Translations under genes and position numbers: made by a program
DNA from: Limnohabitans sp.
GTDB lineage: Bacteria; Pseudomonadota; Gammaproteobacteria; Burkholderiales; Burkholderiaceae_C
Length of the DNA: 64,000 nucleotides
Direction: 5' to 3'
NCBI RefSeq assembly: GCF_031538885.1
Contig: NZ_JAVKLW010000053.1
Span: forward strand, 25,158 to 89,157
The notes under the pieces: generated by a model
Seen by the model: only the letters and a program-made list of their open reading frames with translations
Database searches by the model: none
What the model was told of the DNA's origin: nothing
Part shown: positions 1-4,053 of the stretch, one piece after another
Position numbering within the stretch: the first letter of the stretch is position 1
Layout of the letters: each line of letters starts with the position of its first letter

Positions 1-789
1 TTGGAGGCGGAAGACGAGGATGACGATGACGATGACGAGATCGTCGAGCGATCATCAAAACCAAAATCAATTTGGATAGGCGGTGAATTTTCCACGGACA
101 GTGGGAAAAGAGCCGTCAAGGCAGCCGTTAAAAATTTCAGTTTCGATTTCCCAAAATCAGTGGAGCTGATAGGACGTTGCATGCAAATGGCAACTGGGAA
201 GAGTGCCATCGTTCTCGACACTTTCGCTGGCTCAGGCACCACCGCCCACGCCGTCCTCAAACTCAACGCCCAAGACGGTGGCAATCGCCGCTTCATTCTG
301 TGCGAAATGATGGACTACGCCGAAACGATCACCGCCGAGCGGGTGCGCCGCGTGATGAATGGCTATGGCGAAGGCAGCAAGGCCGTGGCAGGCACGGGTG
401 GGGCTTTTGACTACTACACCGTCGGTGCGGCTTTGTTCACGGAAGACAAGAACCTGAATGAAGACGTGGGCGAAGCGGCGATACGGGACTATGTGGCCTA
501 TACCGAAAGCATCCCCACGGCGCAGCAATGTGGGACAGACAGCCCTGTGAGCCAAGTCAGTAAATACGCGCTGGGAGCCAACGACACGGCCCTATGGCTT
601 TTCTACTACGAGCGTGAGCGTGTGACCACGTTGAACTTGGATTTTCTCGCCAGCCTGAACATCAAGGGCCTCACCAAACGCCCCGAACACTTCATTGTCT
701 ATGCCGACAAATGCGCCTTGGACAAAGAGTTTTTGACCCAGCACGGCATCACGTTCAAACGCATCCCGCGTGACATTACACGCTTTTAA
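1..789 (+). CDS. mod: Type III restriction-modification methyltransferase (Mod), 5'-truncated by window edge
   Basis: FPKSVELI..C and SAM-binding IVLDTFAGSGTTAHAV motif, GGNRRFILCE, C-terminal ITFKRIPRDI; upstream of a Res helicase/nuclease. Confidence 0.9.
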   Translation: MEAEDEDDDDDDEIVERSSKPKSIWIGGEFSTDSGKRAVKAAVKNFSFDFPKSVELIGRCMQMATGKSAIVLDTFAGSGTTAHAVLKLNAQDGGNRRFILCEMMDYAETITAERVRRVMNGYGEGSKAVAGTGGAFDYYTVGAALFTEDKNLNEDVGEAAIRDYVAYTESIPTAQQCGTDSPVSQVSKYALGANDTALWLFYYERERVTTLNLDFLASLNIKGLTKRPEHFIVYADKCALDKEFLTQHGITFKRIPRDITRF

Positions 790-803
790 CAAGGAGCAAA
801 CAC

Positions 804-1070
804 ATGCCTATTATTTCGATGTTTTACGGAATCATCATCCGCATTTTTTTGATCGACAACAAACACCACCACCTGCCACACATTCATGCGCAGTACGCGG
901 AATTTAATGCGTCTATCGACATCGCAGACGGCAATGTGTTGTCTGGCAGCCTTCCCCGCAAGCAATTGCGCTTGGTGCAGGCATGGATAGAGTTGCATAA
1001 CGACGAATTAATGGCCGACTGGACGCTGGCCGTTTCGGGCGAATTGCCCTACAAGATTGAACCCTTATAA
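804..1070 (+). CDS. DUF4160-family protein (putative toxin, DhiT-like)
   Basis: MPIISMFYGIIIRIF..HHLPHIHAQY, QLRLVQAWIELH..ELMADW; RBS AAGGAG upstream. Confidence 0.85.
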   Translation: MPIISMFYGIIIRIFLIDNKHHHLPHIHAQYAEFNASIDIADGNVLSGSLPRKQLRLVQAWIELHNDELMADWTLAVSGELPYKIEPL

Positions 1071-1079
1071 GGAGGCAAC

Positions 1080-1331
1080 ATGTACTGGGACGTAACCAAG
1101 GTAAGCGCCGTGTCTGAACGGTGCATTTTCGTTGAACTCAAAAACGGGAAAAGTGGCTTCTTTGATGTTGCACCTTATTGGGATAAGGGCGTACTTAGAG
1201 AACTTCAAAATCTGCAGTATTTCAAGCAAGTCACGATTTCGCATGGCTATGTTTCATGGCCGCACGGTCAGGATATCGCGCCAGAAACTTTGCTTGAAAA
1301 CTTACAGCCGACACTGGCACCAGCCCATTAA
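1080..1331 (+). CDS. DUF2442-family protein (putative antitoxin)
   Basis: IFVELKNGKSGFFDV..YFKQVTISHGYVSWPHGQDIAPETL; RBS GGAGG; usual partner of DUF4160. Confidence 0.85.
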   Translation: MYWDVTKVSAVSERCIFVELKNGKSGFFDVAPYWDKGVLRELQNLQYFKQVTISHGYVSWPHGQDIAPETLLENLQPTLAPAH

Positions 1332-4045
1332 TGGAACTCAAAGACTACCAAGCCGACGTGCTCAGCGACCTGAGCACGTACCTGCAAACCCTGCTGGATT
1401 GCAAAGGCCATTTAGGCAAAGCCTTCACCACCTACTGGCAAAACCGTGGTGTGCTGAACCAAGTCTATAAGAACAACGTTCAGGAGGTGCCCCATGTTTG
1501 CGTGAAGGTGCCCACGGCAGGTGGCAAAACCTTCATTGCCGTCAACGCCTTGGAGCGAGTATTTACCGCCTTTGCCGAGTACAACCCCAGCCGCCCGAAG
1601 TTTGTGGTGTGGCTGGTGCCGTCGCTCACTATTCTTGAGCAAACGGTGAAGAACCTTGCCAACATCGACCACCCTTATCGTCAGCGGCTGAACGACTTGT
1701 TTCAAGGCCGTGTACAGGTGTACGAAAAAACCGACGTGTTGCAAGGCGCAGGGTTCAACGCCGACACGGTGCGCGAACAGTTGTCCGTGGTTGTGATGTC
1801 GTTTGATTCACTCAAAGCCAGCAACAAAGAAAACCGCAAGGCCTATCAAGAGAACGGCTACTTGGCTTCGTTTTTGAACGACAGCACCCACGATGCGGTG
1901 TTGCTGCCAGAGTTCGACAAGTCTTCTTTGATCAATGTGATCCGCACCTTGAACCCCGTGGTGGTGGTGGACGAGAGCCACAACGCTGAGAGCACTTTGT
2001 CGGTGGACATGCTGCGCAATCTGAATCCGAGTTTCATTTTTGACCTGACGGCCACGCCGCGTGAGAACAGCAACATCATTAGCTACGTAGACGCATTGCG
2101 CCTGAAAAAGCAAGACATGGTGAAGCTGCCTGTAATTGTGGCCAATCAGCACAGCCAAGAAGAGGTGATCATGGCCGCGCTGAATATGCGCCGCCAGTTA
2201 GAGGTGTTGGCCGTCCAGGCTGAGGCCAACGGTGGTGGCTACATCCGCCCGATTGTGTTGTTCCAGGCCGAACCGAAGAGCCGCGACGACAACACCACGT
2301 TTGAAAAAGTCAAACAAGTGTTGCTTGATCTGAATATTCCGCCCGAGCACATTGCCATCAAGACGGCCAACGTCAACGAGTTGAAAGGCGTGGACTTATT
2401 GGATCGCCATTGCCAGATTCGCTACATCATTACCGTCAACGCCTTGAAAGAAGGCTGGGACTGCCCGTTTGCCTACGTGCTGGCAACGCTGGCAAACAAA
2501 TCCTCCGTGGTGGACGTGACGCAGATTTTGGGGCGCGTGTTGCGTATGCCTTACACCGCCAAGCACAGCGCCGAATTATTGAATCTGAGTTATGTGTTCA
2601 CGGCATCCAACCAGTTTCAGAGCACTTTGGGCAAGGTGGTGGCGGGCTTGAACAAGGCGGGTTTTTCCAAGCGTGATTATCGCGAGGTGGATATGTCTGC
2701 CATGCCTGTGGCAATGGATACGGGCAAAACAGGTGCCCAGCAGGGCGACTTGTTGGCCCCAGCAAATCAAGAGCCAGTAGCGCCAAGCGCAGGCGAGGTG
2801 GCGGTAGACCCCTCCAAACTCAATCCGAACTGGGAAGCCGAAGCGGTACAGCACGCCGAGAACTCAGGCGACGGTGCCGCCACAGAAGCCGCCCCCGCAG
2901 ATGCCACAGGCGTGGAAAGCATCAAGGCGCAGGCTATTGCCCAAGCGCAGGCGTTTGAAGCAGAGGCCGCTCAGGCTGAGGGAGACAGTTGCCCAGATGA
3001 ATTGAAGGCGGACATGAACGAACACAAAATGAAGCCGATGTTTGAAGCATCCGCGCAGGCCATTGAGTTGCCGCAGTTTTTTCTGAAACTTCCCAAAGAA
3101 GGCGGCTTCTTTGAATCCAGCGACTTCAATGGCGATGAGTGGCACAAACTTGCCAAAGAAAATTTGTTGACCGATTTTGTTCTTGCCAATCTGGATGCCA
3201 CGGTCAACTTTTCAGCCATTGATGCGGACGTGTATTCCGTCGATGCGGAAGTTGTCGGCGAGGGCGAAAGCGCCCCAGCGTTCAAGGCGGTGAAGAAGGC
3301 CGAGAAGGAAAAACTCAATCACATCATCAAAAGCCAGCTACCGTCAGGGCAGGTGATGTCCATCGTGGCGCGGTTGTTCAGCCTAATCGGCAAGAACACC
3401 TTCTACCCCATCGAAGACAACGACATCAAGAAGTACCTCACGCGCATCGTGGAGGTGATGAGTGCCGAGCAACGTGCCGACTGCCTTGAGCGCGACTATG
3501 CCTATGTGAAGGCCATTAAAGACAAGATTCAGAGTTTGGCAAACGAGTTCGCCGCCAAAGAGTTCAACAACTGGCTGACCACGCAGAAGGTGAAATTGCA
3601 GCCGAGCTTTGTGTTGCCCGCAAGCATTACGCCCAGCGACAACGGGCCTGCCATTATCAAAAGCCTGTATCTCACCGAACGCGGTATGAATGGGCTGGAA
3701 GCGCCTGTTATTGGCAAGGTGGCTCAGCTTGAAAACGTGGAGTGGTGGCACTGCAATCTGGAACGAAGCAAGGGCTTTTGCATCAATGGCTTCGTCAACC
3801 ATTACCCCGACTTCATTGTCCTGACCGCCAGCAAAAACATCGTGGTCATTGAAACCAAAGGCGACGACCGCGACAACTCCAATTCAAAAGACAAATTGAA
3901 ACTGGGAAAAATCTGGGAAGCACAGGCCAACCAGATCGCGCACGAAACAGGCTACCGCTACCACTACATGATGGTGTTTGAGAGCAACCCGATTGACGGG
4001 GCTTTGGTGGTGGGGGATGCGTTGAAGTTGGTTGAAAATCTTTAA
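1331..4045 (+). CDS. res: Type III restriction endonuclease Res subunit (SF2 helicase plus PD-(D/E)XK nuclease)
   Basis: Walker A VKVPTAGGKT, Walker B VVVDESH, LKEGWDCP, QILGRVLR, C-terminal YPDF..IETKG. Confidence 0.92.
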   Translation: MELKDYQADVLSDLSTYLQTLLDCKGHLGKAFTTYWQNRGVLNQVYKNNVQEVPHVCVKVPTAGGKTFIAVNALERVFTAFAEYNPSRPKFVVWLVPSLTILEQTVKNLANIDHPYRQRLNDLFQGRVQVYEKTDVLQGAGFNADTVREQLSVVVMSFDSLKASNKENRKAYQENGYLASFLNDSTHDAVLLPEFDKSSLINVIRTLNPVVVVDESHNAESTLSVDMLRNLNPSFIFDLTATPRENSNIISYVDALRLKKQDMVKLPVIVANQHSQEEVIMAALNMRRQLEVLAVQAEANGGGYIRPIVLFQAEPKSRDDNTTFEKVKQVLLDLNIPPEHIAIKTANVNELKGVDLLDRHCQIRYIITVNALKEGWDCPFAYVLATLANKSSVVDVTQILGRVLRMPYTAKHSAELLNLSYVFTASNQFQSTLGKVVAGLNKAGFSKRDYREVDMSAMPVAMDTGKTGAQQGDLLAPANQEPVAPSAGEVAVDPSKLNPNWEAEAVQHAENSGDGAATEAAPADATGVESIKAQAIAQAQAFEAEAAQAEGDSCPDELKADMNEHKMKPMFEASAQAIELPQFFLKLPKEGGFFESSDFNGDEWHKLAKENLLTDFVLANLDATVNFSAIDADVYSVDAEVVGEGESAPAFKAVKKAEKEKLNHIIKSQLPSGQVMSIVARLFSLIGKNTFYPIEDNDIKKYLTRIVEVMSAEQRADCLERDYAYVKAIKDKIQSLANEFAAKEFNNWLTTQKVKLQPSFVLPASITPSDNGPAIIKSLYLTERGMNGLEAPVIGKVAQLENVEWWHCNLERSKGFCINGFVNHYPDFIVLTASKNIVVIETKGDDRDNSNSKDKLKLGKIWEAQANQIAHETGYRYHYMMVFESNPIDGALVVGDALKLVENL

Positions 4046-4053
4046 GCGTTCAC

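Follow-up and report, generated by a model that had tools for sequence, protein, structure and literature searches.

The 64,000-nucleotide stretch of Limnohabitans sp. DNA analysed here (NCBI RefSeq assembly GCF_031538885.1, contig NZ_JAVKLW010000053.1, positions 25,158 to 89,157 of the forward strand), hereafter the window, begins inside a Type III restriction-modification (RM) operon in which a small toxin-antitoxin (TA) gene pair lies between the modification gene, mod, and the restriction gene, res. All four genes are read from the forward strand. The 3' part of mod occupies positions 1-789, and the full-length gene, coding for 580 amino acids (aa; L002:9047-10789 in locus coordinates), starts 953 nucleotides (nt) ahead of the window. 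Its product (N6_N4_Mtase) is a Type III Mod by both its PADLOC score (MTase_III, 577 bits) and the DPPY and FAGSGTT (FxGxG) motifs of its translation. Downstream on the same strand, res (1331-4045, 904 aa; ResIII; PADLOC REase_III, 235 bits) encodes SF2 helicase motifs, including PTAGGKT (Walker A) and DESH, and a C-terminal PD-(D/E)XK nuclease (PD...ExK). Both genes appear intact.

The toxin gene (804-1070) encodes a DUF4160 protein of 88 aa (PF13711, 81.5 bits, E 4.9e-23, cut-off 23), and the gene directly downstream (1080-1331) a short antitoxin of 83 aa consisting of DUF2442 only (PF10387, 48.7 bits, E 8.7e-13, cut-off 23.9). With DUF4160 in the first gene and DUF2442 in the second, the pair is a member of the DhiT/DhiA toxin-antitoxin family at the level of domains. 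The spacing is very tight: a spacer of 14 nt (790-803) lies between mod and the toxin gene, which has AGGAG 7 nt upstream; 9 nt (1071-1079) separate toxin from antitoxin, with GGAGG 5 nt upstream of the latter; and the antitoxin stop (TAA, 1329-1331) shares a base with the res start (ATG, 1331-1333) in the overlap TAATG (1329-1333). No Shine-Dalgarno-like sequence was found ahead of res in the window sequence. An earlier note on this DNA had described a pair that fills the whole mod-res gap, each gene having its own ribosome-binding site, with the TAATG overlap into res and with no room for a promoter or terminator; the coordinates of the open reading frames (ORFs) and the spacers agree with it on every count. 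Predicted sites in the region were likewise at chance level (three promoter-like sites against 3.5 ± 2.1 expected in shuffled sequence, and 10 terminator-like sites against 9.4), one of the promoter-like sites, at 786-814, spanning the toxin start. The note's AT-richer cassette was right in direction, the GC content of 790-1328 being 0.481, although the difference from the flanks is modest (mod 0.516, res 0.536; window 0.560). Its phrase 'predicted TA partners' names the right family and undersells it, since members have been validated experimentally (PMC8198452, PMC12724237).

In the dhiTA operon of Dickeya dadantii 3937, DhiT inhibits the growth of both Dickeya and E. coli and co-expression of DhiA relieves the inhibition; this operon is autoregulated from a promoter within 100 bp (PMC8198452). 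For the pair on a Thermus thermophilus plasmid, deletion of the second ORF yielded no HB27 transformants, whereas deletion of the first did yield them (PMC12724237). DUF4160 is, in addition, the predicted effector domain of the Menshen NsnC proteins (PMC12065111). The window pair shares with the Dickeya and Thermus pairs the same two domains, the toxin-first order, a gap of a few nt and the small size of the proteins. It differs from them in lying inside an RM operon, from DhiT/DhiA in the antitoxin, whose 83 aa hold the DUF2442 core only against the 160 positions of the DhiA model, and from dhiTA in having no upstream region of its own.

The AF2 model of the toxin (pLDDT 93.5) consists of five strands followed by two helices. 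Neither fold nor sequence searches against the PDB returned a match, in agreement with the statement on DUF4160 in the Menshen paper (PMC12065111). Residues H22, P25, H26 and H28, nearly invariant family-wide, are kept in the window toxin, a motif that hints at a metal or nucleic-acid site. Compared with close relatives, synonymous to nonsynonymous codon differences in the toxin range from 18:1 to 41:10, which indicates strong purifying selection; the antitoxin evolves faster. For the antitoxin the model (pLDDT 87) resembles two structures of DUF2442 proteins, 3K8R and the N-terminal domain of 2AUW, and covers only part of the 151-residue chain of 2AUW, an entry entitled 'putative DNA binding protein'. 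The part of 2AUW that the antitoxin lacks is probably the DNA-binding part. DhiTA is a very large family, with 4401 clusters at 50% identity; of 101 genomes from the window's order, 37 contain it, and DUF4160 genes number about 0.7 per genome there. PADLOC gave no match for either small protein, and viral contigs contained a single, distant relative (47% identity).

Occupants of the mod-res junction in related operons

Species-representative genomes were scanned with Res, which gave 80 loci, and in 72 of these the end of mod and the start of res could be placed; the Res tree and the comparison of junctions cover 73 operons, namely these 72 relatives and the window operon. Recurrence of the pair between mod and res, for which the earlier note had proposed a survey, is real: a DhiTA pair occupies the junction in four of the 73 operons (the window, L011, L015 and L018), and these belong to three cassette lineages. 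The antitoxin ORF overlaps the res start in all three relatives, by the same TAATG in L011 and by 10 nt in L015 and L018. The Res tree requires three or more changes of DhiTA state, and by a rough estimate, which takes about 0.7 DUF4160 genes per genome and assumes about 3000 junctions per genome, an occupancy of 4/73 greatly exceeds what a random junction would show. L015 and L018 carry a second cassette type, with toxins 91% identical, and the junctions of their close relatives L016 and L017 are empty. In L020, a DUF4160/DUF2442 pair of the L011 type (L020:3469-4053) follows a related res at a distance of about 600 nt, with an ORF of 129 aa between them, and so adjoins the RM operon outside the slot.

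L011 is the closest relative of the window operon. The two are sisters on the Res tree (support 100) with Res proteins 91% identical, and yet identity falls to 46% for the toxins and 32% for the antitoxins. When the two loci were compared by blastn, homologous blocks were found at 223-789 (83%) and 1329-4045 (87%), with none between 790 and 1328, so that the DNA of the two operons is homologous exactly as far as the mod stop codon (789) and again from 1329 on; it is this gap that delimits the cassette, 790-1328, as the unit of exchange. The target-recognition region of mod is likewise replaced between the two operons. On the sequence evidence, this is either precise replacement of one cassette by another or two independent insertions at one junction.

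The junction is not reserved for DhiTA. Cargo is present in 33 of the 73 operons; leaving the window operon aside, 29 of 72 hold cargo unrelated to its pair, and at least 19 changes between cargo and no cargo are needed on the Res tree. RhuM family proteins are found at 10 loci; the other occupants include YhcG/DUF1016 PD-(D/E)XK nucleases, Fic/DOC proteins, four-helix proteins of the 23S-rRNA-IVP family, AAA_21 ATPase plus DUF4276 pairs, Uma2, Bro-N and PDDEXK_3 proteins, a Gabija-like OLD-type ATPase with a UvrD helicase (L087:889-4649), a VapBC-like arrangement of a PIN protein after a small ORF (L019:3929-4611), and small ORFs without a family match (in L026 and L044, and at L019:4663-4944 and L089:4800-4988). 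All occupants with a family assignment lie in operon orientation and most come within a few nt of res, some cargo ending 40-157 nt ahead of it. The mod-res junction thus behaves as a general cargo slot in this Type III RM family, one that receives its guests ORF to ORF and in the orientation of the operon.

No cargo is present in 40 of the 73 operons. Of the 39 cargo-free junctions without spare sequence, 25 have at most 5 nt and 14 have 9-46 nt between the mod stop and the res start; two further cargo-free junctions have gaps of 129 and 222 nt without an ORF. Because spacing is this tight in the empty operons, the chaining of res to whatever precedes it is ancestral to the junction and not special to the pair. 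This is where the earlier note's coupling of the pair to res has to be narrowed: the position and the overlap are as it described, whereas tight coupling is a property of the slot, shared with the unrelated cargo of those 29 operons.

The Mod C-terminus, ending in ITFKRIPRDITRF before the stop codon (FK[KR]IPRDITRF-stop), is kept in 73 of 73 operons. In a junction-anchored, ungapped comparison nucleotide conservation near the junction is highest over ~90 nt at the mod 3' end and ~30 nt at the res 5' end, with mean pairwise identities of about 56-78% there against about 30-55% further in. Such conservation of the mod and res ends is compatible with their serving as recombination arms. The codons for the invariant RDITR of the Mod tail form a near-palindrome at window positions 770-783 (CGTGACATTACACG), and in L171 the codons for the same residues read CGTGATATCACG, a perfect 12-nt palindrome. 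The strong conservation of the tail may reflect a nucleic-acid signal at the junction besides constraint on the protein.

The nesting of defence genes within other defence systems ('guilt-by-embedding') is known for Hma, BREX, DISARM and Type I RM (Payne et al., bioRxiv 10.1101/2024.01.29.577857); embedded genes are co-oriented in 96.7% of cases, and PrrC is the classic functional example (bioRxiv 10.1101/2024.01.29.577857; PMC3710099). That survey does not cover Type III systems and does not mention DUF4160, and our literature search, which was not exhaustive, found no paper on cargo between Type III mod and res. The window pair behaves as embedded cargo does, in that its two flanks are same-strand genes of one defence system, it recurs in the embedded position and it occurs outside RM as well. 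The slot as a whole has the two-sided flanks of a single modification-based system, the shared strand, the diversity, the turnover and the occurrence of its guests outside the host that characterise guilt-by-embedding; it differs from the surveyed cases in being a single junction, only 1-5 nt long in most empty operons, and in packing its guests ORF to ORF. EcoP15I and EcoP1I offer the comparison for the host operon, since there too res follows mod and, as is probable in the window operon, is translationally coupled to it, and the proteins carry DPPY and FxGxG in one case and an SF2 helicase with a PD-(D/E)XK nuclease in the other. Unlike those systems, the window operon has two extra genes at the junction and is itself nested, whole, in the maf-rng housekeeping operon.

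Cassettes outside RM operons and their mod and res remnants

The closest toxin loci, 83 in number (88 rows, some redundant; 80 metagenomic and three exact look-up places) with toxins 74-95% identical to that of the window, were scanned for a Mod or Res homologue beside the toxin, and none of the 83 had one. The cassette lineage is therefore independent of RM. The same lineage, with toxins 89-99% identical, is found outside RM operons, where its neighbours are ordinary or housekeeping genes and most cassettes have an upstream region of their own, 100-400 nt long. We considered whether tight embedding in operons might be a general habit of DhiTA cassettes and rejected this, given those mostly 100-400 nt upstream regions and the overlap with a downstream ORF in only 4 of 55 free cassettes (by crude ORF calls).

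Several of the nearest of these free cassettes carry a piece of mod on their left. In L004 (toxin 89% identical), where the cassette lies between yceD and rpmF, 13 relic codons, ITFKRIPCAVARF with the stop codon, stand just upstream of the toxin gene (L004:4985-5028), and their local alignment score is 55, where shuffled sequence reaches 21 at most. The relic in L174 (toxin 92%), after an EamA gene, is intact, reading ITFKRIPRDITRF up to its stop (L174:1164-1205). In L173 (toxin 97%) the relic forms the end of a SoxZ-like ORF, which takes its stop codon from mod (L173:~525-554), and L003 (toxin 95%) holds a degraded copy (L003:~97-145). L172 (toxin 98%) preserves 24 mod codons (270-345), with a substitution at the otherwise invariant proline, and also the first 17 nt of res (886-902), up to the end of the contig. 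A res relic is not detectable in L003 or L004. Further, four lake metagenomes contain a cassette about 95% identical to window positions 802-1359, that is, the pair together with 28 nt of res; the same mod relic lies on its left, and the sequence beyond both ends is unrelated.

The Mod C-terminus is a universal feature of this RM family, and the cassettes with relics therefore came from, or outlived, a mod-TA-res operon. Either the RM genes decayed around a TA pair that could not be deleted, or the cassette moves with the arms. The mod relics of the nearest relatives span about 30-76 nt, and so narrow a range of lengths would fit a cassette moving with its arms better than random deletion. A role for the mod relic (~45 nt) as the sigma-70 promoter of the escaped cassettes was also considered and dropped, as the alignment has no conserved -35/-10 pair.

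The RM island and its chromosomal site

The four genes mod-dhiT-dhiA-res are inserted after maf and before rng, in a co-directional gene array (rsfS-rlmH-maf-[island]-rng), the island extending over L002:9026-14050 (window -974 to 4050). The distance from the maf stop to the mod start is 21 nt and that from the res stop to the start of rng (RNase G, from 4054) is 8 nt, positions 4046-4053 forming the right edge of the RM and TA island. From the maf stop to the rng start the window genome has 5,028 nt, filled by the four island genes; in the closest genome of the same genus (G001) the site is empty, with 13 nt between the same two codons. This Res was missing from 24 of 24 same-genus genomes searched, and neither an integrase nor flanking repeats were seen at the island. 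The island is a recent, horizontal acquisition. A shared maf-rng site, as vertical inheritance would leave, was rejected, since none of 80 related RM loci adjoins maf, rlmH or rng, and the RM unit is therefore mobile. With the island between maf and rng, and the pair in turn between mod and res, there are two levels of nesting.

Two further features of the RM proteins deserve mention. An acidic run of Mod, EAEDEDDDDDDE, corresponds to GAC, GAT and GAG triplets at window positions 1-45; since this repeat is in frame, it does not constitute a frameshift switch, and in read mapping it draws many unrelated metagenome contigs. The same genome also encodes a second Res-like helicase (G000:C68:4984-5763), which is 38% identical over Res residues 196-438, the match lying inside an open frame of 1026 aa.

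Origin and role of the embedded pair

We consider it probable that the pair is an autonomous type II TA cassette of the DhiT/DhiA family, captured as cargo at the mod-res junction and expressed by the operon. Since there is no intergenic room for a promoter of its own and the antitoxin probably has no DNA-binding domain, the pair would probably be transcribed together with mod and res, and, because res lacks a ribosome-binding site of its own, Res would probably be translated by termination-reinitiation relayed through the antitoxin ORF. Such embedding would provide the cassette with expression and with co-transfer alongside RM. The pair would most likely be an addiction module that works against loss of the island, and, like other TA systems, it may also bring about abortive infection when the expression of host or operon is shut off and the antitoxin decays.

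Several observations weigh against this reading, some touching the identity of the pair and others its dependence on the operon. The toxin scores 94.4 bits on the NCBIfam model toxin_DhiT (NF048015), below the equivalog cut-off of 100, so that its sequence makes it a close relative of DhiT beneath the equivalog threshold, and the antitoxin, at 83 aa about half the length of DhiA, has no match to the 160-position DhiA model NF048016. An internal promoter may exist within the mod coding sequence. RNA runs searched for the locus contained no match, and only contigs from lake metagenomes contain it. Finally, all four DhiTA cassettes in the slot overlap the res start, as against the 4 of 55 free cassettes that overlap a downstream ORF, so that there is some adaptation specific to the slot, which could amount to more than passive hitch-hiking.

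A bolder account takes the junction for a dedicated exchange slot, in which TA and defence cassettes are swapped by recombination at the conserved mod 3' and res 5' ends and the guests are expressed by relayed coupling; we hold this possible, though only tentatively. The DhiTA cassettes would, on that account, travel with the arms or outlive them, which would explain why relics of mod (~30-76 nt) and of res (~28 nt) remain. In its boldest form, with the supply of antitoxin tied to the operon, the pair would be a tripwire, the toxin being freed when a phage shuts off expression of the RM operon.

The remaining explanations differ in what they ask of the pair. The earlier note had offered a choice between a guard module and an addiction module, and of the two halves addiction fits better. 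A guard in the manner of PrrC, with DhiT silenced by or together with Mod/Res and freed by a phage anti-restriction protein so as to abort the infection, appears unlikely to us. PrrC in the EcoprrI Type I locus, which the note had rightly cited, is a genuine precedent of a toxic effector gene inside an RM operon; moreover, DUF4160 is a predicted effector domain in Menshen NsnC (PMC12065111), DhiTA has entered the slot from three lineages, and in L020 an L011-type pair stands about 600 nt downstream of res. PrrC, however, has no separate antitoxin, being silenced by the RM enzyme itself, and is almost exclusively embedded in RM, whereas the window pair brings its own antitoxin and its closest relatives live outside RM, with 0/83 beside Mod/Res and near-identical cassettes in unrelated contexts. 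DhiTA works alone in Dickeya, E. coli and Thermus, and the slot holds unrelated cargo in 29 other operons. Position apart, nothing here supports a functional link between this particular pair and Mod/Res.

If instead the identity of the ORFs were incidental, reading frames between mod and res might act as an expression spacer or regulator that delays or attenuates Res relative to Mod and so aids establishment in a new host. The absence of a ribosome-binding site for Res, its chaining to the upstream ORF here and with most occupants of the slot, and the many kinds of cargo tolerated there are all in keeping with such a role. Nevertheless, 40 of 73 operons do without cargo, some cargo ends 40-157 nt before res, and what fills the slot is not arbitrary but drawn from conserved defence and toxin families under purifying selection, and we regard this explanation as quite improbable. 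Least credible of all is a decaying or inert insertion, a TA remnant without present function: degradation is common among TA cassettes, but here neither ORF is truncated, each has a good ribosome-binding site, the near-invariant residues of the toxin are retained, substitutions are strongly skewed to synonymous and the AF2 models are confident for both proteins.

For this genome alone the finding is an ordinary one, an RM island of recent acquisition in which a TA pair is the passenger, and what is described is a new example of a known habit, that of embedded cargo, and not a new machine. The idea of embedded defence genes is extended to Type III RM, at one sharply defined junction that is occupied in almost half of the sampled operons, and the relics left beside free cassettes are an unusually clear record of cassette traffic. 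DhiTA, a barely studied and very large TA family whose toxin fold has no solved relative, is a candidate for phage-defence cargo. The slot itself, apparently undescribed, offers a natural test bed for the expression and exchange of guest genes and a practical hunting ground for new defence and toxin genes.

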